64,000 bases of DNA, from the IMG/VR virus record IMGVR_UViG_3300045988_153285, positions 32,001-96,000 of that record; one strand, given 5' to 3'. The notes under the pieces were generated by a model that worked only from the letters and a program-made list of their open reading frames with translations, did not search any database and was not told the origin of the DNA. This DNA is from a virus. Positions 7,511 through 59,096 of the stretch are shown piece after piece (positions within the stretch are counted from its first letter, which is position 1; each line of letters starts with the position of its first letter). Made by a program: the position numbers and the translations under genes.

Positions 7511-7526
7511 AAAGGAGTAAATAATT

Positions 7527-8995: not shown

Positions 8996-9090
8996 GTTTT
9001 CAATGATTCATATTTATAAATTAGTGATGTTGTTATTTATTTATGTTGATAATTAGTAATATTGTTACACTATACTGTGTTATTAATTTC

Positions 9091-9310: not shown

Positions 9311-9355
9311 CAAGCAAAATAATAAAATCTAAAAGTAAAGAAAGGAATAAAAGAC

Positions 9356-10330
9356 ATGAGAGAATTTAAAGTGAATAATTGGTTAGGGCTAACAAAAGAA
9401 GGAGAATATGTTACAATAGATCAAGTGACAGATATACATACAGATTACTATTGTCCATCATGCGGTGAAATTTTACATGGCAGAGCTTTAGAGTCTGAAT
9501 TAGTCGAAAGACATTTTTACCATTTACAAAATAATAACTTAGAAAGTTGCAACTGTGAACAAGCCTATAAAAGATATTGGAAAGATAAATTTATTTCAGT
9601 TGGTGAAATTATGACATTACCATTTTTAAACGAGATAACTTGTATTGCTAAAGAAATTGATCATAAGGTTAATAGTGATTTAACAGCAGATATTTACATA
9701 AAGTCATCTAATGATGATAATATAGTGATATTGTTTGAAGATAGTAAACAAGTTGAAAATAGTAATTTAAATTATACAATTTTTTATTTAAATTTTATGG
9801 AGCTAAAAAGAGATTTAACAAATATAAACGAGTGTTTAGTATTACTACATAGTGAACAAATTAACAAAATAAATATTGAATTTAAAAATAAAATCAATGA
9901 TATTGCAAGCATTTTTACAAGATTTTTAAAAATTGATTTTTCAGAATGTGCGGTTAATATAAATAAATGTGTAGGTATAAAAAAGGAATTTGAATTATTG
10001 GGTTATAAAGACGAGTGTATTATTATGGATTGTTTAATAGATTCTTTGAAAAAGAGAACAATAACTATTTGTAAATATAAAAATATAAACATAACAAAAG
10101 ATGAAGTAAAAGCGGTCGAATTTTTAATTAATAAATTAAGATCAATTACAAAGTACAATATATCTTTAGATGTAAAAATGTTAAAGTCTATGAAATACAA
10201 AATATATAATAAAGGTTATTATAATAATAGTTGGACTAAATCAGTTTATTTTGACTTAATAAAGCCAATAGGAGCAGAATTTAACTCATACATAAATAAA
10301 ATTGAAAATATTCTAAATAACAATGAATAA
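9356..10330 (+). CDS. CoiA-like competence/nuclease family protein (putative)
   Basis: YYCPSCGEIL..ERHFYHLQ matches the CoiA N-terminal Zn-ribbon + HF(A/Y)H pattern; ADIYIK..ILFEDSKQ resembles the nuclease core. Confidence 0.55.
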   Translation: MREFKVNNWLGLTKEGEYVTIDQVTDIHTDYYCPSCGEILHGRALESELVERHFYHLQNNNLESCNCEQAYKRYWKDKFISVGEIMTLPFLNEITCIAKEIDHKVNSDLTADIYIKSSNDDNIVILFEDSKQVENSNLNYTIFYLNFMELKRDLTNINECLVLLHSEQINKINIEFKNKINDIASIFTRFLKIDFSECAVNINKCVGIKKEFELLGYKDECIIMDCLIDSLKKRTITICKYKNINITKDEVKAVEFLINKLRSITKYNISLDVKMLKSMKYKIYNKGYYNNSWTKSVYFDLIKPIGAEFNSYINKIENILNNNE

Positions 10331-10380
10331 ATTAACAAAATTAAGTATGCAATATAAATATAAGTCTATAATATTCATAA

Positions 10381-10424
10381 AAGGAAGCACTAACAAGAAA
10401 CGAAATAAAGTTAGTGCTTTCCTT
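10381..10424 (+). terminator. strong hairpin after the CoiA-like gene (no clear T-run)
   Basis: AAGGAAGCACTAAC / GTTAGTGCTTTCCTT arms (about 14 bp, one bulge). Confidence 0.4.
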
Positions 10425-10450
10425 ATTCTAATAAAAATTAACACAATCTA

Positions 10451-10499
10451 ATATAAATTAACAAAACAAATTGACAAAAGAATAAGTAAATGTTTTAAT
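10451..10499 (+). promoter_or_regulatory. dispersed motif + promoter driving the ORF-free region
   Basis: ATATAAATTAACAAAAC, TTGACA 10471-10476, TGTTTTAAT extended -10-like element at 10491-10499. Confidence 0.5.
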
Positions 10500-10505
10500 A
10501 TAATT

Positions 10506-10998
10506 AAAATTTAAAAATATTATTTTATATAAATTAATAAAAATATAGGAAGTCCTATAAGGCAACTGGAACACAGAAAAACAGTATAAATAAACTGTGG
10601 TTGGCCACCGACTAAAAAGAAGGCTCGGATATAAGTATTACTTACTATATGCTTATAACCGTCAAACGGGTACATATGACCGTTAAATAAATTATATGGG
10701 TTTGGTTAGCTTAGGTTAGAAATAACGGACTTATAATAAGCTTTAAAGCGTATTCTATGGGCTAAGAGTAGAATGTTAAAGTTATAAGATAACAAAGTAA
10801 GTAATATTACTAAGATACAATAGCGATATACAGTAGTATTTTTGTTTGCCTCGAAAAACAGGGGTAAACTATACCCAAAAATGTGTCCAAGCTCAACCAG
10901 TAGTATATAGCTTCGCTACCTAATTGCAAGTAAAAACTATATTTTATTTATATAAATTAATAAAACAAAGAAGAAGTTTAACGACTTCTTTTTATTTT
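10506..10998 (+). ncRNA. candidate structured non-coding RNA, class unknown
   Basis: About 0.45 kb without an ORF. G+C is visibly higher than in the flanks. A promoter lies upstream and an AAGAAGT/ACTTCTT hairpin + T-run terminator at 10971-10998. Several local hairpins, e.g. GGGTA-aacta-TACCC. Confidence 0.4.
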
Positions 10999-11038
10999 GT
11001 CTAATATTTGATATAATATCCATTAGGAGGTGTTTTGA

Positions 11039-11302
11039 ATGGTTATAAATAAAAACAATGGAAAAATAGTAATAGAAGAATATAGAGAGTTTAACGGGTT
11101 TATAACGGGCATTAAAACAATTAAGGCTTATAACATTACTGTGTTGGATCTTGAAGGTATAGAAAAGTTAAAAGGTAAATTAAGAGTGCAGCAATTAGAG
11201 AATAGAAAGAATTATAAATTTTCTCACAATAGTACCAACAAGGATTTGGTTGAATATGTATTGAATGAATTGAAGAAATACAAGTATATTACTATAAAAT
11301 AA
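11039..11302 (+). CDS. hypothetical protein
   Basis: AGGAGG SD; TGATATAAT extended -10 at 11008-11016. Confidence 0.65.
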   Translation: MVINKNNGKIVIEEYREFNGFITGIKTIKAYNITVLDLEGIEKLKGKLRVQQLENRKNYKFSHNSTNKDLVEYVLNELKKYKYITIK

Positions 11303-11426
11303 GGATTTTAAGCTGTTTTAAGCCTGAATTTAAAGCGTTTAGCATTTAGAGGATAAATTATATTATTAAAAACAAAAACTAAAATTATACTGTTTTAATG
11401 AGATTTACAAGCTATAAAAAATTTAA

Positions 11427-11476
11427 AATATAAATTAATAAAATAGGTTGACAAATATTAAATAAGTCATTATAAT
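11427..11476 (+). promoter_or_regulatory. dispersed motif + consensus sigma-A promoter
   Basis: AATATAAATTAATAAAAT, TTGACA 11448-11453, 17-nt spacer, TATAAT 11471-11476. Confidence 0.75.
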
Positions 11477-11515
11477 ATAATTAAAGATTGAAATTGATTT
11501 AAGGAGTTGTTGAGA

Positions 11516-13339
11516 ATGTGTAAAATATTATTAAATGAAAAATTAAATGGTGTAGAATTATATTTTGAGGAGAAACCAGCAGGAACAGTATTAACAGATT
11601 TAAAAGCTAATGGTTTTAGATGGAATGGTAAAAAGGTTTGTTGGTATGCTAAACAATCAGAAGAAACTTTAAAGGTTGCTAATACATACAGTGAAGGATC
11701 AAAAGAAGTTGCAACAGCTTCATTAAAGAAAATTAACAAAATAGATTTATTTGAATTAACTACTTATACAGAAGTAGAAAGAGAAAAGAATTATAATACA
11801 AAGGAAATAGCAAAGAAAATAAGAACACACTTAAAAGCTAGATTTAAATTTGTTAAATTTTCAGTTACTTCTAAAGATAGAATAAGAGTAGAAATAAAAT
11901 CAGCACCATTTGAAAAAGATACTATTTATTTAAAGGCTATTCAAGAATACGTTGATAAATTAGTAGAATCATACAATTTTTGTACTTGTTATGATCCATA
12001 TGGTGACTATGGTTCAAGTTATAATTTTTATTTCTTTGGTTGTAGAGTTGATTATGATTATATTCAAGTTGAAGCAACACAAGAAATAATTGAAGCTATG
12101 AAACAGTTTGATATTAAAGTAGCCGAAGCCGAAGAATTAAAAAGAGTTGAAGAAGAAAGACAATATCAAGAATATTTAAAAGAACAAGAACAAGCGAATA
12201 AAGAAGCAGAAAAAAGACAAAAACAAATAAAAGCCGATAAAGAATATATTAATAATAATATTGAAGTTGTTGATCTAGAAGAAGGAAATCAATATTTTGT
12301 TAAAAATGCTTATTTTGCAAATTTAAATAAAAATAACACATTAGAAAGATATCAAGAAGAAGTTTCTAAAGGTGACTACTATTTAAATACTTTAAAAGTA
12401 ACTAGAGAAGTTCACTTCAAAGATTTAAAATCATATAATCTATACATAAATATGTTATTACATGATTTTGATTTTATTGACGGTACTGGTGGAAGTTATA
12501 CAGATGATTTAAGAATTAATTCAATGACAGACTATTATAATATGACTAGCGAAGAACAAAAAACTATTGAATGGCTTTTAAAGGGCGTAGCAGTATATAT
12601 TGATAATGAGTTAATGTTTGTTATAGATGCTCAGGGTTATTGTTATGCTAGATATGTTGGATTAATTGGAGAAAATACAGTTACTACAAAGGAATATACT
12701 TGTAAACAAGTTGTAGCAGTTGAAGAGGTAGAAGAAAGAAAAATTGAAGCTGAAGAAATTCAAGAGGTTTATAATAATGTAATTAATAATACTTTTGATA
12801 ATTGGTATGATACTAGAAAAGCAATAGCAGCAGCTATAAGAAAAAATCCGTTATTGACTTTTGATAATACAGTGGTACAACAAATCAAAGATGAAAAAAT
12901 TAAAATTGATTTATATAAAGTGCTAAAGGAAGTCGATACGATTCAAGATCAGTTTAATGAATCAGGATTAAGCAAGGGCGATAAATTAACCATTGTAAGG
13001 GGTTCAATGATTGGCGGGGCTTCTATATCACATATTATATTAGAAGGTTTTACAATGGAAGAATATGCACAATATAAAGACAATGTAAAAATAACTATGA
13101 ATGTTAAGGGTAAAAAAGGTTTATATTTAACTAATGTGCATGATAAAGATATTGTAATATATAAAGGTTGGATTGATATACCTACTAGCGTATTATATGA
13201 AGATACAAGCAATGGAAACTTTAACGGAATGGCTACAAAATACGGAAGTTATGACGAAAGAGCAATAAGTGATATTATGAGTTATTTACAAGAAAAAAAT
13301 ATATTGCCAATAATAAATACATTCAAGCCAATATTTTAA
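11516..13339 (+). CDS. large hypothetical protein with coiled-coil centre
   Basis: AAGGAG SD, ATG 11516; N-terminal NGVELYFEEKP..LKANGFRWNGKKVCWYA domain recalls mobile-element proteins; EEERQYQEYLKEQEQANKEAEKRQ coiled coil. Confidence 0.7.
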   Translation: MCKILLNEKLNGVELYFEEKPAGTVLTDLKANGFRWNGKKVCWYAKQSEETLKVANTYSEGSKEVATASLKKINKIDLFELTTYTEVEREKNYNTKEIAKKIRTHLKARFKFVKFSVTSKDRIRVEIKSAPFEKDTIYLKAIQEYVDKLVESYNFCTCYDPYGDYGSSYNFYFFGCRVDYDYIQVEATQEIIEAMKQFDIKVAEAEELKRVEEERQYQEYLKEQEQANKEAEKRQKQIKADKEYINNNIEVVDLEEGNQYFVKNAYFANLNKNNTLERYQEEVSKGDYYLNTLKVTREVHFKDLKSYNLYINMLLHDFDFIDGTGGSYTDDLRINSMTDYYNMTSEEQKTIEWLLKGVAVYIDNELMFVIDAQGYCYARYVGLIGENTVTTKEYTCKQVVAVEEVEERKIEAEEIQEVYNNVINNTFDNWYDTRKAIAAAIRKNPLLTFDNTVVQQIKDEKIKIDLYKVLKEVDTIQDQFNESGLSKGDKLTIVRGSMIGGASISHIILEGFTMEEYAQYKDNVKITMNVKGKKGLYLTNVHDKDIVIYKGWIDIPTSVLYEDTSNGNFNGMATKYGSYDERAISDIMSYLQEKNILPIINTFKPIF

Positions 13340-18109: not shown

Positions 18110-19054
18110 ATGAGTATTATAATTGATAGATTTGAAAGAGAATTAATAAGATCCGAAGCTTCTGTTGATACAATAGCAGCATATAAAAGTGATTTGAAAA
18201 AATTTCATGAATATATAAGAGAAAATGTTTTTTACAGCGATAGCAGTTTCGATGAATCTCTTTGTGCTATTACCTATGAGGTTTTAGAAGATTTTATTTA
18301 TTGGCTTGAAGATAGAGAATATTCAAGAGCAACAATTAACAGAATGGTCGCATCACTAAAAGCATTTTATAAATACTATTCTAAGCATAGCGGATTTAAT
18401 CCTGCTATTGGACTTAAAGGATATAAGAATGTGAATAGTAGACGTAGAACTGTATTATCAAAAGAACAAGTAATTAAAATAATAAACCAAACACAGATAA
18501 AAAGATATGGTGAACCTTATATGTTATTTAATGCACAAAGAAATAGATTTTTAATAGCTTTACTTGCAACAACTGGACTGAGAATAGGAGAAGCACTTAA
18601 TATTAAGTTCGGAAATATAGAACACTACGATGGATATAAAATGGTTAATATCGACATACATAAAGGAAAAACTAAACTTAACAAAAGAGTTCCTATTTGT
18701 GAAAAAATATTGCCATACTATGATTTATATATAGAAGAATATAAGAAAAAATTTAAGATAAGTGATGAAAAATATTTAATTGTTGCTGGAAGATCAGGAG
18801 GACAATTGTGTTCAAAATCTAGTAATGTGATGATAAAAAAATATTGTAAAGAATTAGAGATAGAAGATGTGACAAACCATTGTTTTAGACATTACGCTAA
18901 TACATCACTGGAAGAACTTGAAACACCAGATTCAATAAGAAAAAAAATATTAGGGTGGAGTTGCAATGGTGATATGGGGAATAGTATATATTCGCATGAT
19001 ACAGAAAAAAAAGATAAGATAATGGCGAAGTATTGCAATAAAATATTAGAGTAG
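18110..19054 (+). CDS. tyrosine recombinase (XerC/D / phage integrase family)
   Basis: TGLRIGEAL (Arg), HCFRHYANT (H-x-x-R), LGWS..GNSIYSH (Tyr); N-terminal SAM-like domain ..IAAYKSDLKKF. Confidence 0.85.
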   Translation: MSIIIDRFERELIRSEASVDTIAAYKSDLKKFHEYIRENVFYSDSSFDESLCAITYEVLEDFIYWLEDREYSRATINRMVASLKAFYKYYSKHSGFNPAIGLKGYKNVNSRRRTVLSKEQVIKIINQTQIKRYGEPYMLFNAQRNRFLIALLATTGLRIGEALNIKFGNIEHYDGYKMVNIDIHKGKTKLNKRVPICEKILPYYDLYIEEYKKKFKISDEKYLIVAGRSGGQLCSKSSNVMIKKYCKELEIEDVTNHCFRHYANTSLEELETPDSIRKKILGWSCNGDMGNSIYSHDTEKKDKIMAKYCNKILE

Positions 19055-27220: not shown

Positions 27221-28165
27221 ATGAAATATTTTGAATTATTTGCAGGGACAGGTATAGGAGGACTAGCATTAGATAGAAATGGATTTAAAAATGTAGGATA
27301 TTCCGAATATGATACGTATGCCATTAAGAATTATGAAGCTAATTTTCCAGGAAGAGTTAACTATGGAGATATAACAAAAATTAATGAAAAAGAATTACCT
27401 AATTTTGATCTATTAATAGGTGGCTCACCATGTCAAGATATAAGTATAATGCGAAAAACTTGGACGGAAGGTAATACAGAAGGGTTGCAGGGGAATGAAA
27501 GTAAATTATTCTTTGATTATGCGAGAATATTAAACTATAAATTACCAAAATGGTTTATATTTGAGAATGTTCAGAATTTAACTACATGTAATAACGGGGA
27601 AGACTGGGATATAGTCAAAACCGCTTTAGAGAGAAATTATTTTATAAAGTATAAAATATTAGATACTAAAAATTATAATATACCTCAAACTAGAAGAAGA
27701 ATATACATACTTGGACAAAGAAAAGATTTGGGAGAATTTAATTATGAATTTCCTAAACCATTGAAATTAAACAAAACAGTATTTGATCTATTAGAAAGAA
27801 ATGTTGATGATAAATATTATTTAAGTGATAAAATGTATGACTATGTTATGAAAGAAGGTACTGGGAACTTTAAGCAAAAGCCTGAGACTGATCTTGAAAT
27901 TGCTAGACCTCTTACAGCTACTATGCATAAAATGCACAGAGCTGGAACGGATAATTATTATCATACTAACTATAAGCCAAATAATAAAACAAATTTAAGA
28001 AAATTAACACCTAGGGAATGTGCTAGACTACAAGGTTTGGATGATACATATAAAATAGTAGTTAGTGACACAAGGGCTTATAAATTAATGGGAAATGCTA
28101 TGAGTCTAAATGTTATTGAAGCAATAGTTAAAGAATTATTGGAATACATAAATAAATTAAAATAA
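27221..28165 (+). CDS. C5-cytosine DNA methyltransferase
   Basis: FAGTGIGG (I), GGSPCQDIS (IV), FENV (VI), QTRRRIYILG (VIII), GNAMSLNV (X). Confidence 0.9.
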   Translation: MKYFELFAGTGIGGLALDRNGFKNVGYSEYDTYAIKNYEANFPGRVNYGDITKINEKELPNFDLLIGGSPCQDISIMRKTWTEGNTEGLQGNESKLFFDYARILNYKLPKWFIFENVQNLTTCNNGEDWDIVKTALERNYFIKYKILDTKNYNIPQTRRRIYILGQRKDLGEFNYEFPKPLKLNKTVFDLLERNVDDKYYLSDKMYDYVMKEGTGNFKQKPETDLEIARPLTATMHKMHRAGTDNYYHTNYKPNNKTNLRKLTPRECARLQGLDDTYKIVVSDTRAYKLMGNAMSLNVIEAIVKELLEYINKLK

Positions 28166-28247: not shown

Positions 28248-28970
28248 ATGGTTTATATGGGAAGTAAGAATAGATTAGCAAAATGTTTAGTGCCAATAAT
28301 ACAAAATTATATAACAGAAGATACAAGAGGATATTTAGAACCATTTGTAGGTGGTGCAAATATGATTGATAAGATACAATGCAACAATAAAATAGGTTGC
28401 GATATACATAAACCATTAATAGCATTATTGAACAAAGCAAAAGATGATAGTGAATCTTTGCCAACGAATATAACAAAAGAAGAATATGAGGACGTTAAAA
28501 ATAATAAGGAGAGTTACGAAGATTGGTATGTAGGATTAGTCGGTTTCTGTTCTAGTTTTGGCGCTAAGTATTTTGGTGGATATGCAAAAGCTAATGATAA
28601 GAGAAACAGACAATTAGAGATGATAAATAATTTAAAGAAACAATCACCTAATTTAAAAAATATAGAGTTTAAATGTTGTGATTTTCTTGATTTGCCAAAA
28701 GAAGATATAAAAGGATATGTTATTTATTGCGATCCACCATATAAAGGGACAACCAAGTATAAGACAGAAGAATTTCCATATGAAGAATTTTATGAATGGT
28801 GCAAAGAAATGTCAATACATAATACAGTTTTAATTAGTGAATATAATATGCCCGATGATTTTGAATGCATATGGGAGAAAGATCTTAAAACTTCTTTGGG
28901 TAGTGGTGTTAATAAAGAGAGTGATAGAAATAGAACTGAAAGATTATATACATATAAAATAACTAAATAA
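28248..28970 (+). CDS. Dam-like N6-adenine DNA methyltransferase (D12 class)
   Basis: MGSKNRLAKCLVPII N-terminus and CDPPYKGTTKY motif. Confidence 0.85.
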   Translation: MVYMGSKNRLAKCLVPIIQNYITEDTRGYLEPFVGGANMIDKIQCNNKIGCDIHKPLIALLNKAKDDSESLPTNITKEEYEDVKNNKESYEDWYVGLVGFCSSFGAKYFGGYAKANDKRNRQLEMINNLKKQSPNLKNIEFKCCDFLDLPKEDIKGYVIYCDPPYKGTTKYKTEEFPYEEFYEWCKEMSIHNTVLISEYNMPDDFECIWEKDLKTSLGSGVNKESDRNRTERLYTYKITK

Positions 28971-31057: not shown

Positions 31058-31948
31058 ATGAGAGTTTTAAGTTTATGTGATGGAGTTTCGGGAGGACAAC
31101 AAGCATTTGATATGCTTGGAATAAAATTTAATGGAGTAGAAAATACGTACTATGCGAGTGAAATAGCCGAATATAGTATAAAAGTTACACAGAAAAATTA
31201 TCCTACAACCATACAACTTGGAGATATGACAGCATTGACAAATGATTTTTTTGACAGTTTGGGTGAAATTGATATTTTACTTTCAGGCACACCATGTAAA
31301 TCGTTAAGCCGTACTCACATAGGTAATTATAATGAAGGCTTAGATGGATCTTCTAAATTATTTTGGGATTTTGTAAGAATAAAAGATTATATAAAACCTA
31401 AATATTTCTTATTTGAAAATGTAGAAAGTATGAAAGACAGTGATAGAGATATAATTACAGAGGCACTAGGTGTTGAACCAATTATGATTAATAGCAGTTT
31501 ATTTACTGCGCAGGATAGAAAAAGATATTATTGGACTAATATACCTATATTACCATTACCAGAAGAAAGCTCATCGGTATTAAAAGATATAATGATACAT
31601 AATCCAGAAGAGAAATTGTTTTATAAGCAAGATTTTGAATTTCATGGCTGGGATAAAAAACAGATAGCAACTTTAAATTTAAAATGCCATGACATAGGTA
31701 AAAGAGTTTATAATCCAAATATGAAATGTGCTACTTTAACTGCTGTAACAGGTGGATATCAAGAAAAGAAGGTTTATGATAATGGAAGGTGTAGAAAATT
31801 AACTCCATTAGAATATGAAAGGTTGCAGGGTATGAAAGATAATTATACTGAGGGTATAGCTAATTCAAAAAGATATTGTGCTTGTGGTGATGGATGGACT
31901 ATACCTGTAATAGCACATATATTAAAGGGTTTAAAAGAATACATATAA
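31058..31948 (+). CDS. C5-cytosine DNA methyltransferase (divergent)
   Basis: LCDGVSGG (I-like), SGTPCKSLS (IV variant), FENVESM (VI), QDRKRYYW (VIII), GDGWTIPV (X). Confidence 0.75.
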   Translation: MRVLSLCDGVSGGQQAFDMLGIKFNGVENTYYASEIAEYSIKVTQKNYPTTIQLGDMTALTNDFFDSLGEIDILLSGTPCKSLSRTHIGNYNEGLDGSSKLFWDFVRIKDYIKPKYFLFENVESMKDSDRDIITEALGVEPIMINSSLFTAQDRKRYYWTNIPILPLPEESSSVLKDIMIHNPEEKLFYKQDFEFHGWDKKQIATLNLKCHDIGKRVYNPNMKCATLTAVTGGYQEKKVYDNGRCRKLTPLEYERLQGMKDNYTEGIANSKRYCACGDGWTIPVIAHILKGLKEYI

Positions 31949-33878: not shown

Positions 33879-34391
33879 ATGAAATTAAATTTAATACCAG
33901 ATTTAATACTCATAAATGAAAGAGGAGAGAGGTTTAAAATTATAACTCAGCAAGCTGTAATTAGAATAGGTGATAGCGTTTTAATTAAAAATGACTTTGA
34001 CATTAGAGATGAATTAGAAAAGTTTTTTGAAGAATCAAAAGAATCAATTCTTGAATTAGAATACCATCCGTTAGATCAAAATCTAGAGCATACAGAAATA
34101 ACTACTAAGCGAATATATATTAATACATATGAAGTTAGAGAGTATTATAACACTGAAAAGGATAAAAATGATATGATATATATGTTTAGCGTTTCTGGTG
34201 AGAATACAAAGGAATTAATTGAAGAATATAGACACAGACAGATAGTTGAAAGTTTAAAAGAACAAAAATCAAAAGAAATAAAGTTTATTGATGAGGCAAC
34301 TCTGGAAAGATTGCTTAACGAAATGAGTGTAGGAACGCAAGAATTGATAGATTCAAATACAGAATTAATAAATAAATATTTAAGTATATAG
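33879..34391 (+). CDS. hypothetical protein immediately upstream of the cas operon
   Basis: AAGGAGAG SD; 170 aa. Confidence 0.7.
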   Translation: MKLNLIPDLILINERGERFKIITQQAVIRIGDSVLIKNDFDIRDELEKFFEESKESILELEYHPLDQNLEHTEITTKRIYINTYEVREYYNTEKDKNDMIYMFSVSGENTKELIEEYRHRQIVESLKEQKSKEIKFIDEATLERLLNEMSVGTQELIDSNTELINKYLSI

Positions 34392-34396: not shown

Positions 34397-34414
34397 AATA
34401 TAAATTAACAAAAC
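34397..34414 (+). repeat. dispersed motif copy heading the cas operon
   Basis: AATATAAATTAACAAAAC followed by an AGCCC/GGGCT hairpin and the cas5 SD. Confidence 0.7.
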
Positions 34415-34465
34415 ATAGAGGATAAAGCCCGGAGTTGGGCTATTAAATAGATGTGAGGTGAAGAA

Positions 34466-35098
34466 ATGAGGTTTCATAAATTAATTATAACTGGCAATGA
34501 AGCACACTTTAAAATACCTATGAGAAGCAAATTTCAAAATACTTATAAAATACCTCCTATATCAACAGTTGTAGGAATGCTGCAAAATATATACGGTAAA
34601 GATATAAATGACTTTGAATTAGGATATTTCATAGAGTATGAGGGTGTTGGAAAAGAAATAATAAATATATATAAAGAAGTAAATAGTAGGCAGAAGACAT
34701 TGACTTGTTCAGATAGATTTACGAAAGATATTATATATGTTGAAAATTTATATAAAGTTAGGCTAGTTATCTACCACAATATAGAAAAAGAAATTGAATT
34801 CAAAGAACCATTGACATTAGGGAAAGCTAATTATCTTGCAAATGTAAAATTTGAGGAGATAGATCTAACTAATAAATTAGGTTTAGGATATAATCAATAT
34901 ACCCCTAAAGATATAGGATATGGTATGTTGACAAGAATTAATACAGTAACAAAATACAATGAATTAAAAGGTTATTATGAATATGAAACAGAACTTGTAA
35001 GAGAAAACTTGGAGGAGTTTGAGTTAGATAATAACTATGATGAAACAGAAGATATGAATATTTATGTGTGGAAATGGAGTGATGGAGTTGTTAGTTAA
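34466..35098 (+). CDS. cas5: CRISPR-associated protein Cas5
   Basis: MRFHKLIITGNEAHFKIPMRSKFQNTYKIPPISTVVGMLQNIYG is the classic Cas5 N-terminal pattern; LTLGKANYLANV. Confidence 0.8.
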   Translation: MRFHKLIITGNEAHFKIPMRSKFQNTYKIPPISTVVGMLQNIYGKDINDFELGYFIEYEGVGKEIINIYKEVNSRQKTLTCSDRFTKDIIYVENLYKVRLVIYHNIEKEIEFKEPLTLGKANYLANVKFEEIDLTNKLGLGYNQYTPKDIGYGMLTRINTVTKYNELKGYYEYETELVRENLEEFELDNNYDETEDMNIYVWKWSDGVVS

Positions 35099-35849
35099 AA
35101 AAATAATAATTATGAAAGGTGAGGGCAAGTTAGATTATAATTATCATTATGAATTAATGAAGAGATTATACGAAGCATTAACATTAACGGATGATAAGAA
35201 GGCATTGAATCTACACGATAAAGGAATAAGTGTAGATAAAAAGAGGTTTAAATTATTTAATTATACATTATGTTTCGATAAGGAAGTAAAATATTTAAAT
35301 GATGGTATAAGTTTTAATAAGGATAATAGTATTAGATTAATTCTATCAGGTGATACAGATATATTAAATCCAATAATTAAAGGACTTATAACTAAACAAG
35401 TAATAACCTTGAATGGTGTTGAATTAAAAATAACAAATATGGAAGACGATAAAAAATTTAACTTCAAAAATATAATGCTATATAAAGTAAGATCACCAAT
35501 AGTTGAAACAATATTTAATGGCGAAAGAATAGAGTATTTAAATCCTTGTCAAGAGAATTGGTATTCAGCTTTGGCAAATAACTTAAAGAGGAAATATAAA
35601 GCGGTGTACAATGAAGAATATGAAGGTGAGTTATTCTTTGACATAGAAGATATATTAAATGTTAAAAAGAAAATGATAAATAAAATCAAGAAAGGATTTT
35701 TAATAGGATATACAGATTTTGAAATATTTGTACAAGCTACTCCTAAGATGCAAAAAATAGCTTATAATTTAGGATTAGGGCAAAATAGTAGCTTAGGAAT
35801 GGGAGCTATATCTTATATAAAAGGGTGGAACAATGAACAGGACATATGA
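35082..35849 (+). CDS. cas6: CRISPR-associated endoribonuclease Cas6
   Basis: Trimmed to MELLVKK..; LHDKG..FKLFNYTL; C-terminal Gly-rich loop GLGQNSSLGMGAI typical of Cas6. Confidence 0.75.
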   Translation: MELLVKKIIIMKGEGKLDYNYHYELMKRLYEALTLTDDKKALNLHDKGISVDKKRFKLFNYTLCFDKEVKYLNDGISFNKDNSIRLILSGDTDILNPIIKGLITKQVITLNGVELKITNMEDDKKFNFKNIMLYKVRSPIVETIFNGERIEYLNPCQENWYSALANNLKRKYKAVYNEEYEGELFFDIEDILNVKKKMINKIKKGFLIGYTDFEIFVQATPKMQKIAYNLGLGQNSSLGMGAISYIKGWNNEQDI

Positions 35850-36960
35850 TGTATTCGTAGATAATGGGTTATTTGTGTTAGCATACTATCTAGATAAGGA
35901 AATAGAGAATATAACAGAACAAGATATATTTGATAGTATAGATATGATGTGTGAAAAGATAAATGAATTTACTGGTTGTGAAAAGTATTCAAATTTAAAA
36001 TCTATGATGTTTGCAAATTCAGCTTTGACACAACCTAATTCATCAAAGAAAGTAAATGACTTTTTAAATGACTTTTATAATTCTAAAGGCGAAGAAACTT
36101 GTTGTACTTGTGGAAATAAAACAGCAAATATAATTAATGGAGATTTAAATAGAAGTTATCTACCAAATAAAGTAGCACATACATTTTATAATTTCTCTAA
36201 CAATCTACAGGGTGTAAATGTATGTGGAATATGTTCTATACTTACAATGTTTAGTATATTAAATGCTAGAGTATATGGATTGGCTTACTTATATAATAGC
36301 GATAATGATGACTTTATGTATGACTATACATATGAACGTCAAGAAGAGAATGAAAGAGATATATTATCAGAAGCAAAGAAAAGTAAAGAAAAGATCAATA
36401 GTTTAAATACAGTTGAGCAGTTGATGAATAATACTAAGCTATATGATGGATATATACAAATATATAAATTCAACAATTCAGGACAAAACCAAGACATAGA
36501 AATACAAGATATTAATTCTGAAAGTGTTAAGCTATTATCCAATATAGTTAAATCAGGTATGTTAAATGAATTTAAACAATTTGGCTTAATGTACAATCTA
36601 ATCATAGGCAATTTAAGAAACGTATATCTTAGTAAAATAACAAAAGATGATGAAATGATATGCAGCAAAGAATTATTTGAGATGTTAAATAGAGAGGTAA
36701 ATATTTTGAGTAGTGAATTAAAGGAAGTTATAATAAAAATAGCCGATAGGTTAAAGAATGAAGATATAGTTAAGATAAGAAAAACATTAAAATTAATAAA
36801 AACATTTAAAGACTTTGAAGGGTTTATTGTTAACCTAGCTGAAGATTATAAAGATAAATATGATGACAATTTGTATACAGTTGACGAGTATATGCTATTA
36901 GATAATAAATTAAAATATAACCAAATTAAAAATTTAATGATAGTAAGCTTGATGCAATAA
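35833..36960 (+). CDS. cas8: Cas8b-like large subunit (short, 375 aa)
   Basis: Position between cas6 and cas7; CCTCGNK..CGICS Zn-finger as in the TM1802/Cas8b family; helical C-terminus. Confidence 0.55.
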   Translation: MNRTYDVFVDNGLFVLAYYLDKEIENITEQDIFDSIDMMCEKINEFTGCEKYSNLKSMMFANSALTQPNSSKKVNDFLNDFYNSKGEETCCTCGNKTANIINGDLNRSYLPNKVAHTFYNFSNNLQGVNVCGICSILTMFSILNARVYGLAYLYNSDNDDFMYDYTYERQEENERDILSEAKKSKEKINSLNTVEQLMNNTKLYDGYIQIYKFNNSGQNQDIEIQDINSESVKLLSNIVKSGMLNEFKQFGLMYNLIIGNLRNVYLSKITKDDEMICSKELFEMLNREVNILSSELKEVIIKIADRLKNEDIVKIRKTLKLIKTFKDFEGFIVNLAEDYKDKYDDNLYTVDEYMLLDNKLKYNQIKNLMIVSLMQ

Positions 36961-36974
36961 TAAATTAATAAAAT
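36956..36974 (+). repeat. dispersed motif copy (variant) inside the cas operon
   Basis: AATAATAAATTAATAAAAT overlapping the cas8 stop, upstream of the cas7 SD. Confidence 0.55.
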
Positions 36975-37000
36975 TAGAGAGTAAAAGGAGAATGATTAAA

Positions 37001-38029
37001 ATGAAAAGAATGTTAAATATGAATTATGTTATTGAAGTTTTAGATGGAAGATTAAACGGAAGTGCAGTGGAAGTCGAAAGCAATAAGGATGGATTTAATA
37101 ATACAACTTTTACAAAGAAAATCGGTGGTAGAGCTAAGGTATCGGCAGTTTGTCAAAAGGCGAACATGAAGAATTATATGTGTGAAGTATTAAAAGAAAC
37201 TATTGGAGAAAAGACTAAAGAAGGTAAGCAAGTTTTAAGCACGCCTAACCCATATGCTAATTTATTTGATGATGTATTTGGATTTATGTTGGCGACAAAG
37301 ATTGAGTTGACTGAGGGAGAATATAAGGAATTACCAGAAGATGTGCAAAAAACATTTGAAAAGAAAGGTAAAAAATATACTAATAATGCAACTAAAAAGA
37401 GAACTTCTAACTTACAAATGAGTTCATTAATCAATGTGAGTAATAGAAGGGTTGAAACGGAATTTAATGTTTGTGCTACAAGTGGAGACAATATGCCTTA
37501 TAAAATTGAAACATATTCAGGAATTATGTCAGGAATAGCAAACTTAAATATAGGTAAGATAGGTGAATTTACTATATCAGATATTGCGTCAGAATATAGA
37601 GATTATACTGTTAAAGAAGCAGAAGTTCTAGGGGTTGAAAACCTATCAAGAGAAGATAAATTATCTAGAATAGAAAAGACATTAAATGCTTTAGAGTATA
37701 TGTCAATCAAAGGAAATCAGACAAACCACTTAACAGATACAAAACCTAAATTTATTATAATGGCTGATTATGGTTGGGGTAATAATGTATTCCAAGGAGT
37801 GATAAATAAAGATGGGTTAGATATAGAAATGCTAAAAGAATCAATAGATCAAAATGAAGAATATAGATTAAGTAATATTTATATAGGAGTTAATAAATTC
37901 TTTGATAAAAATAACAATTTAGATTTAGATACAATAAGAGAAGAATTAAGGGAATATGATTTCATAAAAGTTGATAATGTTCATAATACATTTAAGAATT
38001 ACATAAAAGAGTTAAGAGAGAATATTTAA
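37001..38029 (+). CDS. cas7: Cas7-like backbone subunit
   Basis: Size and position; GGRAKVSAVCQKANMKNYM resembles the Cas7/DevR R..(V/I)S....K..R segment; trimmed to ATG 37001 for SD spacing. Confidence 0.6.
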   Translation: MKRMLNMNYVIEVLDGRLNGSAVEVESNKDGFNNTTFTKKIGGRAKVSAVCQKANMKNYMCEVLKETIGEKTKEGKQVLSTPNPYANLFDDVFGFMLATKIELTEGEYKELPEDVQKTFEKKGKKYTNNATKKRTSNLQMSSLINVSNRRVETEFNVCATSGDNMPYKIETYSGIMSGIANLNIGKIGEFTISDIASEYRDYTVKEAEVLGVENLSREDKLSRIEKTLNALEYMSIKGNQTNHLTDTKPKFIIMADYGWGNNVFQGVINKDGLDIEMLKESIDQNEEYRLSNIYIGVNKFFDKNNNLDLDTIREELREYDFIKVDNVHNTFKNYIKELRENI

Positions 38030-38127
38030 TTGTCGATGTAGTGGGATTTTAACACTAAGTTAATTAGACAGAAAATAAAAGACGGTCAGAGGTTGCAAAC
38101 TTAGTGTTAGAGCCAATATAGATACGG
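38030..38127 (+). other. CRISPR leader-side region with 11-bp inverted repeat
   Basis: AACACTAAGTT 38051-38061 / AACTTAGTGTT 38098-38108; comparatively G+C-rich; no obvious sigma-A promoter. Confidence 0.5.
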
Positions 38128-38751
38128 GTATTAATTATAATATGGTTATTTATAAACAACAACCTTTTAAAGTCATTATGAGTATTCCAATATGTATTAA
38201 TTATAATATGGTTATTTATAAATGAATGTGGACTCCTATATAAGATTATCTTCGATACGTATTAATTATAATATGGTTATTTATAAATATATATAAATTT
38301 TATGTGTTTCTTCAGTTTCTTCTGTATTAATTATAATATGGTTATTTATAAACTATAAATAGGTGTTTTTAACTCTAAATAGTGTCAAAGTATTAATTAT
38401 AATATGGTTATTTATAAATAGATCTACTGCCATTTTAATATTCATACTATTCACTTGTATTAATTATAATATGGTTATTTATAAACAGTGGTAATTCTAT
38501 TGTCAATATATCACCATAACTAGTTTTAATATTAATAATATATATTTATAAAGGTAGTAACAGTTTTAGGAACATTGACAGCTGGTGTGTTTAAATAGTA
38601 ATATAATTATTTATAAATGGTGTAGTGGTATACGACATCGAAAATAAAACTGCGTTTAAATATTAATATAGTTATTTATAAACTAAAAGGTCTTCCTAGA
38701 TACATTACATCTAAAGAAGTGTATTAATTATAATATAAATTATTTTATAAA
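38128..38751 (+). CRISPR. CRISPR array, 10 repeats / 9 spacers (36-38 nt)
   Basis: Six identical 29-nt repeats GTATTAATTATAATATGGTTATTTATAAA at 38128, 38194, 38259, 38324, 38390, 38457. Variants follow at 38523, 38589, 38654, 38721. Confidence 0.95.
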
Positions 38752-38771
38752 ATTGAAAGGAGTAAAATAAA

Positions 38772-40718
38772 ATGTTAAAAGAGTATATAGCAAAAACAGA
38801 TAAAACATCATTAGAAGATCATAATAAAGAATTGACAAATATACTGAAACAAATAATTGATATATATGATATAGAAAATATAAAAGAATCATTGAATAGA
38901 TGTATTGAATATCATGACATAGGAAAATGTTCTGATTCAATGCAGAATAGATTAAAGGGAAAAGACGTTAATTTTATAAGACATGAATGGGTCGGTGCAA
39001 GTGTAGAAGATCTGACAGATGGTGAAAGATTGGCTATATTAACGCATCATAAAGATATTAGTAAGTCATTAGAATTAATTGATAATGATAAGTATATATC
39101 TGAATTAGAAGAAATTAAAAATAAATTGAATATAAAATTAAATAATATTGATGATTTTGTTAAGAAAGTAAACAAACCGAGGTGTAGTATTACAAAAGAT
39201 TTAGATAATATATTATTAAAGGGTTATTTAAATTATTGTGACCATTTATGCAGTGCAGGTAATATAACTATAGATAAAGGATTTAATTCTTTAGATAGGT
39301 TTAAGTTTAATAATTATAATTCTATTCAGAATAAGGCTATGAATACACGTGAAGACGTTTTAATTCAAGCTATGACAGGATTAGGTAAAACAGCGGCATC
39401 TTTATTGTGGAGTAATAATGTTCAGAATGAGGACAAGTCTAAAAGAATATATTACATATTGCCTTTTACAGCTAGTATAAATTCGTTATATAAAGATTTC
39501 TTAAATAGAAATATATCTACCACAATGCTACATAACAAAGCTGAATATTTTATGGACAAGCTGCATGATGAATATAATTATAAATTAATGAAGTATTCCA
39601 CTAAGCAACTAAACATTTGCACAATATTTCAATTAGCTAAGGCAATTTTTAGTTGTAAGAACTTTGAAATGATAATAGCTCAAATGAAGAACAGTATAAT
39701 AATGGTAGATGAAATACATTGCTTTGATTTAAAAACGTTGAGTTATATTTTAGAATTATTAAGATTTTTAAAATATAAATTAGGATGTAGAATCTGCATA
39801 ATGAGTGCCAGTATTCCAACTGTATTACAGAAATTAATAAAGGATAGACTAGATATAAACAAGGTTATATATGCTGATAAGCGTGATCTAAAAATAAGAC
39901 ATAGAATACATAGAGTAAATAAAACAATTTTGGATGACATAGAAAAAATAGAAAATGATCTAAGAGAAGGAAAGCAAGTTATAGTGTGTGTTAATAATGT
40001 GACTACTTCTCAGATTATTTATAAAATATTTAAAGATAAATATAAGTGCAAGTTGATACATGGTAGATTTAATACTAGAGATAGAGAAATTGCTGAACAA
40101 GGGCTAAAGGTAAATCAATTACTTGTAGGAACTCAAGCGATAGAAGTATCTTTAGATATTAGTTATGATACAATGTATACTGAAATAGCGCCATATGATG
40201 CTTTACTGCAGCGTTTCGGAAGAGTTAATAGACGTGGAGAAAAGGGAATTAGAGATATTTACATATATAATAACTATAATAAATGTATTTATGATGATGA
40301 ACTAATTAATAATACAGATTTAGTTATAGATGAAATAATACATAATGATAATAGAATAATACTTGAAGAAAAAGTTGAGCATTATTTGGATAAAGTTTAT
40401 ACATATATAGATATAATTAGCTACAATAAATATTCAAATTCTTTAGAAAAAGTAATAAATAATCTTAGAGTTGGAAACTATAATAAAAATAGCATAAAAG
40501 AGATGATTCAAGGTGATACAGTATCGGTAATTCCTGAGTGTCTATTGGAAGAATATCAAAAGCTGATAAATGATAGAGAATATTTAAAAGCTCAATCACT
40601 AAAGTTAAATATTAATTCTAATAGAATGAAATACAATAGTGACATGTTTTATATATGCGATGATTTGGTTGTATCGAAATATAAATATACATATGATTTA
40701 GGTATGGAGTTTGAATGA
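38772..40718 (+). CDS. cas3: Cas3 nuclease-helicase (HD domain + SF2 helicase)
   Basis: HD motifs (EDHNKE, YHDIGK, THHKD); helicase AMTGLGKT (I), VDEIH (II), QRFGRVNRRG (VI). Confidence 0.85.
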   Translation: MLKEYIAKTDKTSLEDHNKELTNILKQIIDIYDIENIKESLNRCIEYHDIGKCSDSMQNRLKGKDVNFIRHEWVGASVEDLTDGERLAILTHHKDISKSLELIDNDKYISELEEIKNKLNIKLNNIDDFVKKVNKPRCSITKDLDNILLKGYLNYCDHLCSAGNITIDKGFNSLDRFKFNNYNSIQNKAMNTREDVLIQAMTGLGKTAASLLWSNNVQNEDKSKRIYYILPFTASINSLYKDFLNRNISTTMLHNKAEYFMDKLHDEYNYKLMKYSTKQLNICTIFQLAKAIFSCKNFEMIIAQMKNSIIMVDEIHCFDLKTLSYILELLRFLKYKLGCRICIMSASIPTVLQKLIKDRLDINKVIYADKRDLKIRHRIHRVNKTILDDIEKIENDLREGKQVIVCVNNVTTSQIIYKIFKDKYKCKLIHGRFNTRDREIAEQGLKVNQLLVGTQAIEVSLDISYDTMYTEIAPYDALLQRFGRVNRRGEKGIRDIYIYNNYNKCIYDDELINNTDLVIDEIIHNDNRIILEEKVEHYLDKVYTYIDIISYNKYSNSLEKVINNLRVGNYNKNSIKEMIQGDTVSVIPECLLEEYQKLINDREYLKAQSLKLNINSNRMKYNSDMFYICDDLVVSKYKYTYDLGMEFE

Positions 40719-40737: not shown

Positions 40738-40787
40738 AATATAAATTAATAAAATAGATTGACAAATTTAAATAAGTAATATATAAT
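40738..40787 (+). promoter_or_regulatory. dispersed motif + consensus sigma-A promoter just after cas3
   Basis: AATATAAATTAATAAAAT, TTGACA 40759-40764, 17-nt spacer, TATAAT 40782-40787. Confidence 0.75.
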
Positions 40788-57026: not shown

Positions 57027-57040
57027 AAGGAGTGAATGAT

Positions 57041-58258
57041 ATGAGGAAAGTTTTCTTAGATAATTTACCTAAAAAAATGAGGATAGATAAAGAAATTATT
57101 GATTGGAAGGGTAGTATGGGAATCAAAGTACCGTTTATCTATGATGATATTGAAGGAGAAGTTGAGATTATTAACTATGATAATGGAATTTTAACTATAA
57201 AAAATTTATTGAATAATGAATTTTTTAAAATAAAAACTGATAAATTATCAAAATGTAAACTTGGGAAGATGCTAACGAAGTATACAAAAAACTTTAAATA
57301 TAACATCAATAACAATATTATAAGCGAAAATAGAGATTTAATCATAACCGATAGAGAATATAGGGAGAGAAAACATTCTAATGCAAACAGTATTATAAAT
57401 GATAAATACTATAAATATACATGTAATAAATGTGGTTGGACTGAGGGATGGATTGTAGAGGGAAGCTTAAGTAAGGGTGTTGGATGTTCTTGTTGCTACA
57501 ACAGATCTGCTGTTTTAGGCATAAATACAATATGGGATACTGATAGATGGATGTGTGATTTAGGTGTATCTGAAGAAGATGCAAGAAAATTTACTAAGTC
57601 TAGTGGGAAAAAGATAGAAGTTATATGTCCTGATTGCAAGAAAAGAAAATTGGTTTCGATTGATAAAATATACAAAAATAAATCCATAGGTTGTAGTTGT
57701 GGAGATGGAATTAGTTATCCTGAAAAATTTATAAATGATGCGCTAAATCAATTAAATGTTGAATTTCAAAGTCAATTAACAAAGACAACATTTGAATGGT
57801 GCGGAGACAAAAGATATGACTTTTATATACCAGAATATAATATGATAATTGAAACTCATGGCATACAACACTATGAAGATTGTAATTGGGGTAAAGCATG
57901 TGATATTCAAGAGAACGATAGAATTAAAAAGGAATTAGCAAAAGAAAATGGTATTGAGCATTACGTTGTTATAGATTGTAGATATAGTGAATTAGAATGG
58001 ATTAAGAATTCTATATTAAATAGTAAATTGGTAGATATGCTTAATTTATCTAAAATTGATTGGCTAAAGTGTGAAGAATTTGCACTGAAGAATATTGTCA
58101 GGGAAGTATGTGATTATTGGAATAATAAAGAGGAGTGGGAGACTACAACAACCATTGCAGAAAATAATGAATGGGGAATTAGAAGTGTTATTACAGTAAT
58201 AAAATATCTCAAAAAAGGAACAATCTTAGGATGGTGCAACTATAATCCTAAAAGATAA
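57041..58258 (+). CDS. putative homing endonuclease (zinc ribbons + Vsr/DUF559-like PD-(D/E)XK core)
   Basis: CNKCGW..CSCC, CPDCKK..CSCG; YDFYIPEYNMIIETHGIQHY nuclease-core pattern; sits where the phosphoesterase gene is truncated. Confidence 0.55.
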   Translation: MRKVFLDNLPKKMRIDKEIIDWKGSMGIKVPFIYDDIEGEVEIINYDNGILTIKNLLNNEFFKIKTDKLSKCKLGKMLTKYTKNFKYNINNNIISENRDLIITDREYRERKHSNANSIINDKYYKYTCNKCGWTEGWIVEGSLSKGVGCSCCYNRSAVLGINTIWDTDRWMCDLGVSEEDARKFTKSSGKKIEVICPDCKKRKLVSIDKIYKNKSIGCSCGDGISYPEKFINDALNQLNVEFQSQLTKTTFEWCGDKRYDFYIPEYNMIIETHGIQHYEDCNWGKACDIQENDRIKKELAKENGIEHYVVIDCRYSELEWIKNSILNSKLVDMLNLSKIDWLKCEEFALKNIVREVCDYWNNKEEWETTTTIAENNEWGIRSVITVIKYLKKGTILGWCNYNPKR

Positions 58259-58356
58259 TATAGTTCACTATGTTTTTTTGTGTATTTAAGAAAGCAAACG
58301 GTAAATTAGCTTGTTTGTGCTTAGATACTATGGAAGAATTTTATATCTAAATTCAA

Positions 58357-58384
58357 GGCAGCTTAACGGCTGTCTTTTCTTTTT
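58357..58384 (+). terminator. Rho-independent terminator
   Basis: GGCAGC / GCTGTC stem (one G-U), 6-nt loop, T-rich tail. Confidence 0.65.
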
Positions 58385-58393
58385 AAATTTTTT

Positions 58394-58443
58394 AATATAA
58401 ATTAATAAAATAGGTTGACAAAGGTATAATATGGGTATATAAT
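58394..58443 (+). promoter_or_regulatory. dispersed motif + consensus sigma-A promoter
   Basis: AATATAAATTAATAAAAT, TTGACA 58415-58420, 17-nt spacer, TATAAT 58438-58443. Confidence 0.75.
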
Positions 58444-58484
58444 TAAATCATCAAGTAAATAAAATAATAAATGAGGTGGTTAAT

Positions 58485-59096
58485 ATGGCAGAAAGAAATT
58501 ATACTTTAAGTGAATTAAAACTAATTGAAAAGGTAAAAGAAGAAAACACAACTTGTTATTATTGTGGTGATCCATTGAAATCTAAAAATAGAACAATAGA
58601 TCATAAAGTTCCAATAAGCAGAGGTGGACAAACTACATTAGACAATCTAGTAGTAAGCTGCAAAAGATGTAATGAAGAAAAGGGAATGATGAATGATGAA
58701 GAGTATTTAAGTTTCTTAGAAAAGTTTAGAAAATACATAGATGAAGATATTAACTTTAATGAATTAAAAGATATAAAGACTAAATACCAAGGAATATTAG
58801 ATAGGCACAAAGAATTATGTGAGAAGCATCGCTTGATAGGGTGTGAAGTTAGAAAAGTTCAAGATATAATAATGGTTATGAAGATGAATGCAGCAGATGG
58901 ATACATATTAGCAAGAGATTTACAAAAGTTATTAAATGAACAAAATGAAATTAAAAAGCAAAAAGAAAGTATAGCTAAATTAAGAGATATGGCTATAAAT
59001 CAAATAAATGAAATATCTAAGAATATGACGGCTTTAGCAGATACAGTAAGGAGCAATTACAGGAATGATGTAATAAGAAATATCAGATATAAATAA
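58485..59096 (+). CDS. HNH endonuclease with coiled-coil C-terminus
   Basis: CYYCG..IDHKVPISRGGQTTLDNLVVSCKRCNEEKG. Confidence 0.85.
   Translation: MAERNYTLSELKLIEKVKEENTTCYYCGDPLKSKNRTIDHKVPISRGGQTTLDNLVVSCKRCNEEKGMMNDEEYLSFLEKFRKYIDEDINFNELKDIKTKYQGILDRHKELCEKHRLIGCEVRKVQDIIMVMKMNAADGYILARDLQKLLNEQNEIKKQKESIAKLRDMAINQINEISKNMTALADTVRSNYRNDVIRNIRYK

Follow-up and report, generated by a model that had tools for sequence, protein, structure and literature searches.

In the present study, we analyzed a 64-kb stretch of viral DNA from the IMG/VR record IMGVR_UViG_3300045988_153285, hereafter called the window, and all coordinates below are positions in it. Between 34466 and 40718, on one strand, the window encodes Cas5, Cas6, Cas8 and Cas7, followed by a CRISPR array and by Cas3 (Table 1). 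A preliminary description had recognized five Cas open reading frames (ORFs) at this locus, and all five proved to be real: they lie at the same coordinates on the + strand, overlap or tightly abut each other and have profile support. It had also taken them for a type I interference module with an array and without adaptation genes, which was borne out by type I-B profiles and by a Pfam search in which none of the 98 other ORFs of the window matched Cas1, Cas2 or Cas4. The gene order, cas5-cas6-cas8-cas7-array-cas3, is not that of the canonical type I-B operon, which is cas6-cas8b-cas7-cas5-cas3-cas4-cas1-cas2; the position of cas5 at the front, correctly pointed out as non-canonical, is constant across 13 related loci. 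The coding sequence of the module comes to about 5.5 kb. No near-identical DNA was found by megablast against phage and plasmid collections, and Rfam and tRNA scans of the window returned nothing. The locus is an intact addition to a clade that is already public and has twice been described as 'partial type I-B'.

Table 1. Features of the cas locus, with positions in the 64-kb window
Feature	Coordinates	Strand	Support
cas5, 210 amino acids (aa), first gene of module	34466..35098	+	TIGR01895, TIGR02593, PADLOC Cas5b
cas6 endoribonuclease	35064..35849 (likely start 35082)	+	TIGR01877, Pfam Cas_Cas6_C, PADLOC Cas6b
cas8 large subunit, compact, 375 aa	35833..36960	+	PADLOC Cas8b PDLC02050
Candidate internally translated Cas11-like small subunit, 84 aa, in frame in cas8	36706..36960	+	Conserved Shine-Dalgarno-like motif and start
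cas7 backbone subunit, likely start 37001 (342 aa)	36992..38029	+	TIGR02585, PADLOC Cas7/Cas7b
CRISPR leader, 98 nt	38030..38127	+	Upstream of the perfect-repeat end of the array; conserved in relatives
CRISPR array, 10 repeats and 9 spacers	38128..38751	+	Repeat finding, spacer matches
cas3, 648 aa, HD nuclease fused to superfamily 2 (SF2) helicase	38772..40718	+	cas3_core, cas3_HD, PADLOC Cas3b

The module is of type I, with a Cas3 that has an SF2 core and an HD domain and with Cas5, Cas7 and Cas6 beside a CRISPR array. By best profile matches the subtype is I-B, every one of them among the five proteins being a type I-B model (Cas5b/TIGR01895, Cas6b, Cas7b/TIGR02585 and Cas3b, besides the Cas8b profile). 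Cas5 matched TIGR01895 (Cas5b) with E=9.6e-18 and the PADLOC Cas5b profile with E=2.5e-18; the Cas5b score lies below the trusted cut-off of NCBIfam, and the generic Cas5 N-terminal model, TIGR02593, passes its own (38.6 bits; cut-off 17.8). Cas6 was recognized by TIGR01877 (68.3 bits; cut-off 58.65), by PADLOC Cas6b (E=4.9e-39) and by Pfam, as Cas_Cas6_C (E=4.2e-15) together with a Cas6_I-A N-terminal domain. Its ORF opens at 35064, and the ATG at 35082, which gives 255 aa as called for the homologous gene in two independent assemblies (L032 and L033), is probably the true start. The Cas7 match to TIGR02585 (Cst2/DevR, I-B) reached 73.0 bits, right at the cut-off of 72.75, with PADLOC Cas7 and Cas7b at E=2e-23 and 4.5e-21; a profile sequence search of the PDB gave no match for Cas7. 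Cas3 matched cas3_core with E=9.4e-63 and cas3_HD with 44.3 bits, just over the cut-off of 43.45, and PADLOC Cas3b with E=8.6e-137 over its full length (residues 3-646). Its translation contains the HD motifs YHDIGK, THH and CDH and the helicase motifs GLGKT, DEIH, SAS and QRFGRVNRRG. Two other identities were considered and rejected: a type I-B CRISPR-associated transposon (CAST), as Cas3 is present and intact and no Tn7 transposase family occurs in the Pfam matches of the window ORFs, and a type IV system, as Cas3 is present and there are no DinG or Csf genes. The ORF at 33879-34391, just ahead of cas5, was considered as a further Cas protein and rejected: Pfam, NCBIfam and PADLOC scans gave no Cas match, and it is conserved in the closest relatives only.

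Cas8 is the least firmly assigned member of the module. Its match to the PADLOC Cas8b profile PDLC02050 (E=2.7e-11) covers positions 99-485 of the 496 in the profile, and an alignment that begins at position 99 fits a protein without about 100 N-terminal residues of a typical Cas8b. There was no significant Pfam match (CXXC_CXXC, E=0.19) and no NCBIfam match. The four cysteines of the CxxC...CxxC pattern (C90, C93, C131 and C134) are invariant among homologs, and the family comprises 74 clusters of 372-411 aa, all from Clostridia; most are named 'hypothetical', as they are in NCBI and UniProt, and one was named Cst1 by JGI. An AlphaFold2 model built with 51 homologs had a predicted local distance difference test score (pLDDT) of 88 and a predicted template modeling score (pTM) of 0.81.

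The module has no separate cas11 gene, and internal translation of Cas11 from cas8 is known for I-B, I-C and I-D systems (bioRxiv 10.1101/2020.04.18.045682, PMC11899642, PMC13199841). In 10 of 13 cas8 homologs, an R-G-GAG-G motif stands 8-9 nt 5' of an in-frame TTG, ATG or GTG, and this conserved internal start sits 84-90 codons ahead of the stop. GAG is the minority codon for glutamate (about 20%; 29 GAG vs 114 GAA in the window cas genes), yet the motif is conserved. In the window it appears as a Shine-Dalgarno (SD)-like GAGAGG, 8 nt before TTG 36706. The 84-aa C-terminal segment that begins there is predicted to form a five-helix domain (pLDDT 95). It is likely, though unproven, that TTG 36706 yields an 84-aa Cas11 by internal translation. 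The preliminary description had suggested ATG 36655 instead; this codon has no SD sequence and is not conserved, and we discarded it as the Cas11 start.

The array repeat is GTATTAATTATAATATGGTTATTTATAAA, 29 nt long and effectively 30 nt with a final Y. Six perfect repeats, spaced at 65-67 nt, lie at the cas7 end, and four degenerate ones follow toward the cas3 end; the nine spacers measure 35-37 nt. Because the perfect repeats lie at the cas7 end, 38030-38127 is taken as the leader and the array as read in the direction of the cas genes. The leader is near-identical in the metagenome contig L030 and conserved in the related locus L001. About 20 nt separate the end of the last degenerate repeat from the cas3 ATG, and this repeat is followed immediately by the GGAG ribosome-binding site of cas3. 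Just past the cas3 stop, at 40759-40787, there is a perfect sigma-70 consensus (TTGACA, 17 nt, TATAAT), the sole 12/12 match in the scanned region, which probably starts the next transcription unit. The exact window repeat had no match in IMG/VR. The repeats of the related loci belong to one family, GTATTAAT..AACTATGTTAGTTATAAAN, which differs from the canonical C. difficile repeat; the latter was confirmed in arrays of C. difficile phages. On plasmid p2BKT015925 (L013), a second array lies past the clade-type arrays, at 18584-18940, with a distinct 30-nt repeat, GTTGAACATTAACATGAGATGTATTTAAAT, so two repeat types coexist on this replicon. This second repeat presumably resembles canonical clostridial I-B repeats.

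Two adjacent spacers of the array have targets. Spacer 2 (38224-38258; protospacer GAATGTGGACTCCTATATAAGATTATCTTCGATAC) matches the contig IMGVR_UViG_3300045988_175147 at 35/35 positions; spacer 3 (38289-38323) has its match in this contig too, at 33/35 and on the opposite strand. Each protospacer is immediately preceded by 5'-CCA as protospacer adjacent motif (PAM). The target contig (L029) is 34 kb long with 28% GC and has nothing else in common with the window; among the genes in the 14.8 kb read are those for a Dit tail protein, HNH and a rolling-circle Rep. Furthermore, spacers of the C. difficile members of the clade match endolysin, holin, tail-fibre and tape-measure genes of C. difficile phages, and a CCA or CCT PAM is present at seven of their eight protospacers. 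For the canonical I-B system of C. difficile, CCW has been validated by experiment as the PAM (PMC4556805), and the same PAM is published in PMC6079278. The PAM and target results fix the direction of transcription and show type I-style targeting of phage DNA; they fit, without proving, a choice of spacers by a host I-B adaptation module. Against reference collections, the window spacers gave only a chance-level match (a crAss-like phage, E=0.4); spacers 1 and 8 had no IMG/VR match, and no window spacer had a self-target within the window. In L029, the two protospacers lie at 4180-4214 and 10920-10954, on opposite strands and 6.7 kb apart; adjacent spacers against opposite-strand protospacers are a pattern that primed acquisition could produce.

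The spacer content turns over rapidly. In contig L030 (OBKB01000226.1, 5062 bp), Cas8, Cas7 and Cas3 are 98-99% identical to those of the window, and the two arrays have one pair of repeat variants in common, GTATTAATTATAATATGG... close to the leader and GTTTAAATAGTAATA... close to the trailer. None of the 12 spacers of L030 is common with the window, and therefore the spacers have been completely replaced within about 5% synonymous divergence. The assemblies L032 and L033, whose Cas8 is identical to P0066 (99% identical to window Cas8), both end at about position 12323, some 125 bp past cas7 and at the array start; these breaks are consistent with array heterogeneity in the population disrupting assembly. 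In addition, the cas genes are under purifying selection. The ratio of nonsynonymous to synonymous substitution rates (dN/dS) was 0.09-0.21 for all five cas genes vs a 155-kb relative and 0.08-0.09 vs L030 (synonymous divergence, dS, 0.05-0.06); singly, it was 0.17 for cas5 (vs L001), 0.09-0.14 for cas7 and 0.09 for cas3. With this selection, the intact Cas3 motifs and the PAM-flanked phage targets, the locus looks functional.

For comparison, we collected 13 distinct related loci with 33-99% amino-acid identity to the window proteins. Cas7 has 65 homolog clusters, all clostridial; scans of viral and genome contigs with Cas7 alone yielded no loci, and a profile search was needed. The order cas5-cas6-cas8-cas7 was found in 13/13. 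Orthologous Cas proteins by tblastn and tblastx, this order, the GTATTAAT...TTATAAAN repeat family and the lack of adaptation genes mark the window locus as a member of the clade. The relatives include a 155-kb SPbeta-like contig (ERZ28629643 scaffold_42; 72-81% identity), C. difficile chromosomes, whose copy is part of an integrated element that also has integrase, Fic and DnaB genes, a 208-kb C. botulinum contig, Terrisporobacter, Hathewaya limosa and C. carboxidivorans P7. One Cas8 cluster member of the clade, found on at least 1000 C. difficile contigs, has a UniProt entry with the mnemonic CLODR, which we take to denote strain R20291. In phage c-st, ISCbt1 interrupts cas8 and there is no cas3. 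The copy on p2BKT015925 adjoins RepA; its cas8 and cas7 are broken into fragments, and its array contains IS256. The site of the array varies: it stands between cas7 and cas3, after cas3 (in C. difficile, H. limosa, L017 and L018), or at both places (two loci). Its position between cas7 and cas3, which the preliminary description had regarded as a distinctive trait, is thus no fixed property of the clade, and a regulatory role of an array ahead of cas3 as a clade trait was rejected on the same ground. Cas3 is missing within the available region in L015, L019 and L020, as in c-st. In L019 (C. carboxidivorans P7 chromosome, 7398-11902) and L020 (1-3865), cas5-cas6-cas8-cas7 and a short array occur with no cas3 within 10 kb, one locus amid housekeeping genes (a thiamine pyrophosphate enzyme, cobalamin/cobalt transport) and the other beside clamp-loader genes of a large mobile genetic element (MGE). 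Such loci could be either Cascade-only variants or copies in decay.

Within 10 kb, as far as the available sequence reaches, no Cas1, Cas2 or Cas4 accompanies any of these loci; for L019 and L020, the flanks were scanned with Pfam. Relatives without cas1, cas2 and cas4 nearby nevertheless carry large arrays, of 48 (Terrisporobacter) and 69 (Hathewaya limosa) repeats. Adaptation-less CRISPR systems on MGEs and the acquisition of spacers in trans are established concepts (PMC11656645).

The carrier of the module was examined through its other genes. The window has 24-28% GC and nearly all of its genes are on one strand. They encode an anti-repressor (Ant), YopX, DnaB, a primase, RecJ, a B-family polymerase (PolB) and a RecD-like helicase, all by PHROG and Pfam matches, as well as two tyrosine recombinases (one of them MrpR/YopR-like), a PemK toxin, several DNA methyltransferases, an AAA_24 annealing protein, HNH endonucleases and PcfJ. 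In its organization the window resembles the left arm of c-st, a plasmid-like Clostridium prophage in which SPbeta homologs are numerous, and sequence similarity is low outside the cas genes. The setting among phage-type genes that had been noticed before is that of a large SPbeta/c-st-like element, with the module in its early/replication region. The ORF at 3706-4932 on the - strand (408 aa, phrog_23878) is a homolog of c-st CST015 (27% identity over 381 aa, E=1e-17), which we take, putatively, as the gene drawn as a replication initiator beside the c-st CRISPR locus in PMC8473940. Just upstream of this ORF, at 4959-5087, about 4.4 copies of a 22-bp tandem repeat look like iterons, and 3706-5087 is possibly a plasmid-type replicon. 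No structural or partition genes were found in the window. Cas8 homologs with 47-72% identity (P0068, P0072, P0073, P0080, P0081 and P0104) occur on contigs of 144.8, 153.0, 155.7, 156.7, 157.5 and 159.8 kb from different samples, which suggests an element family of about 150 kb assembled to completion. Judged by its gene content and these contig sizes, the carrier is probably a temperate, SPbeta/c-st-like phage or phage-plasmid of about 150 kb. The region upstream of the cas module (27221-28165, 31058-31948 and 28248-28970) contains two C5-cytosine DNA methyltransferases, joined by further ORFs that resemble N6 and Eco57I-type methyltransferases; they are likely anti-restriction cargo. Directly after the polymerase and RecD-like helicase genes of the replication module, 57032-59096 holds two ORFs, of 408 and 206 aa, for HNH or homing endonucleases.

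In a previous study, Le Gratiet et al. (2021) described the loci of c-st (p1_Stockholm), p2BKT015925 and pCLG2/pCN2, on mobile elements of Clostridium novyi sensu lato, as type I-B and mostly incomplete, without Cas4, Cas1, Cas2 and sometimes Cas3, and near a replication initiator; according to these authors, the botulinum loci carry spacers against other MGEs of C. botulinum, and one copy, p1_16868, is complete (PMC8473940). Their Cas5, Cas6, Cas8, Cas7 and Cas3 share 40-50% identity with the homologous window proteins and are encoded in the same order; the repeat family is common (GTATTAATAGAACTATGTTAGTTATAAAG in theirs vs GTATTAATTATAATATGGTTATTTATAAA in the window), and in both cases cas4, cas1 and cas2 are missing and the carrier is a large phage or plasmid. 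Unlike the window copy, which is intact, the c-st/p2BKT015925-type copies are disrupted by insertion sequences (IS), frameshifted or without cas3. Moreover, the window carrier is distant from c-st, with few shared proteins beyond the cas module, and its Rep-like ORF lies 30 kb from the module and not beside it, unlike in those loci. Boudry et al. (2015) reported in R20291 an 'additional divergent' partial operon of five genes, CDR20291_2998-2994, with the array CRISPR 20, expressed in RNA sequencing (PMC4556805). It lacks cas1, cas2 and cas4, and the C. difficile members of the clade (49-56% identity to the window), whose PAM is CCW, have the same make-up; their array follows cas3 and their module lies in an integrated element, whereas that of the window lies on a large phage. 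We infer that the R20291 operon very probably belongs to the same clade. The suggestion of an undescribed type I variant, made in the preliminary description, does not hold: the same module and order occur in c-st, p2BKT015925 and the pCLG2/pCN2-type plasmids, described as incomplete I-B in 2021 (PMC8473940), and the module is common in C. difficile. To what was known, the present analysis adds the clade-wide cas5-first order and repeat family, the CCW PAM, a conserved internal start in cas8, fast turnover of spacers and two spacers that target a phage.

Compared with canonical clostridial I-B (C. difficile CD2982-CD2975), the window module has the same interference components, 29-30-nt repeats, 35-38-nt spacers, the 5'-CCW PAM and likewise no separate cas11 gene; it differs in having cas5 first and cas6 second, in its distinct repeat and in carrying no adaptation module. 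Its Cas8 of about 375 aa contrasts with the 62.7-kDa Cas8b1 of T. maritima, and the curated Pfam and NCBIfam models miss it. Type IV-A3 plasmids, the Haloferax provirus I-B and jumbo-phage systems also combine effector and array on an MGE without an adaptation module, and for IV-A3 both inter-MGE conflict and spacer acquisition in trans are documented (PMC11656645, bioRxiv 10.1101/2023.06.23.546257, PMC12596717). Unlike type IV, which uses DinG, and CASTs, which have no Cas3, the window appears to keep a Cas3 competent as a nuclease, and in evolutionary terms its system is a I-B lineage of Clostridia.

Taken together, we consider it likely that the locus is an intact type I-B interference module of a clostridial clade, which moves as a cassette on mobile elements, sometimes settles in chromosomes and has its spacers loaded in trans. 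In such a system, cas5-cas6-cas8-cas7, the array and probably cas3 would be read as one transcript, and Cas6 would cut the 29-30-nt repeats to give CRISPR RNAs (crRNAs) with the 8-nt 5' handle UUAUAAAY. Cas5, Cas7, Cas8 and the 84-aa Cas11-like fragment of Cas8 would then assemble into Cascade, which would read 5'-CCW-flanked DNA protospacers and recruit the HD-helicase Cas3 for degradation. The element would turn this module on competing phages, two of its spacers being directed against one unrelated small phage. The earlier idea of a weapon used by a phage-plasmid against competing elements gains from these two PAM-flanked matches; as to the phage-plasmid status, the window offers a Rep-like ORF and phage genes, and no partition genes. 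New spacers would most likely be installed in trans by a canonical I-B adaptation module of the host, with the same CCW PAM. Dependence on such help, also proposed at the outset, is plausible in view of the host-type PAM and the complete spacer turnover relative to L030, and stops short of proof.

Several points weigh against this reading. The identity of Cas8 is given by one PADLOC profile and synteny, and structural confirmation of Cas8b and Cas11 by Foldseek and the PDB failed. The Foldseek search of the Cas8 model against the PDB gave nothing significant (top match the I-C Cas8c 8g9t_K, E=0.37), so that Cas8 is strongly diverged from all solved large subunits, and a Cas8 profile sequence search of the PDB gave no match. 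For the 84-aa segment, the top template modeling score (TM-score) was 0.58, to the I-A Cascade small chain 7tr6_E, which is not significant (E=2.5). A promoter and terminator scan, relevant to the single transcript, was uninformative in this AT-rich DNA of 26% GC (59 sites vs 66 expected). Targets were found for two of the nine spacers. The repeat of the C. difficile clade members shares 19/29 positions with the canonical host repeat in a manual comparison, and the use of clade arrays by host Cas1-Cas2 is unproven because the two repeats differ. Finally, the window shows 64 kb of an element of about 150 kb, so adaptation genes may lie elsewhere on the element, and the relative p1_16868 is reported to carry cas4-cas1-cas2 (PMC8473940).

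A further-reaching proposal would see here a dedicated MGE lineage of I-B that merits its own variant name, with a compact, divergent Cas8 containing an internal Cas11, a fixed cas5-first order, its own repeats, adaptation genes lost for good and an obligate use of host Cas1-Cas2-Cas4 with a shared CCW PAM. We regard this as tentative and rather doubtful at present. If it were true, clostridial phages, plasmids and integrated elements would wage an RNA-guided war at the expense of the host, and with about 5.5 kb of coding sequence the module would be among the more compact Cas3-containing type I systems.

It is improbable that the system is complete and self-adapting, with cas4-cas1-cas2 elsewhere on the element of about 150 kb and outside the window. 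The fast spacer turnover would suit such a system, the window is less than half of the probable element (homolog contigs of 145-160 kb), and a relative, the botulinum neurotoxin (BoNT) phage p1_16868, has been reported as complete with its adaptation module (PMC8473940). However, canonical type I adaptation genes adjoin the effectors, and none is present here in the 25 kb downstream or the 34 kb upstream, nor within 10 kb in the 13 related loci, which lie on varied elements and chromosomes.

Still less probable is a role in counter-defence or host manipulation, in which the module would be aimed at host islands, host genes or host CRISPR, or would act as a Cascade-only transcriptional silencer. 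A phage CRISPR directed at host islands is established in ICP1 (PMC11656645), seven spacers have no known target, and L019, L020 and c-st, being without cas3, could bind without cleavage. Against this, both identified targets lie on a phage-like contig, the C. difficile spacers match phage genes, and the window has an intact Cas3 and no self-target. The least probable view, that of a decaying or silent remnant, which would agree with four degenerate repeats out of ten and with the visible decay of the c-st and p2BKT015925 copies (split or fragmented cas8, missing cas3, IS256 in the array), has against it five full-length ORFs with intact catalytic motifs, dN/dS of 0.08-0.21, six perfect repeats and a spacer that matches an extant phage contig at 35/35 with the correct PAM.

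CRISPR systems carried by MGEs illustrate the conflicts between phages and plasmids. An intact, Cas3-armed and adaptation-less I-B module on a large clostridial phage provides a clean case of inter-element conflict in a clade that has so far been represented mainly by broken copies. The compact module, of about 5.5 kb, is also of practical interest, and the clade Cas8, still 'hypothetical' in NCBI and UniProt, marks an annotation gap. C. difficile, like botulinum-toxin phages and plasmids, commonly carries members of the clade. The borrowing of host adaptation is testable there, and the answer bears on phage susceptibility and on the stability of toxin phages.

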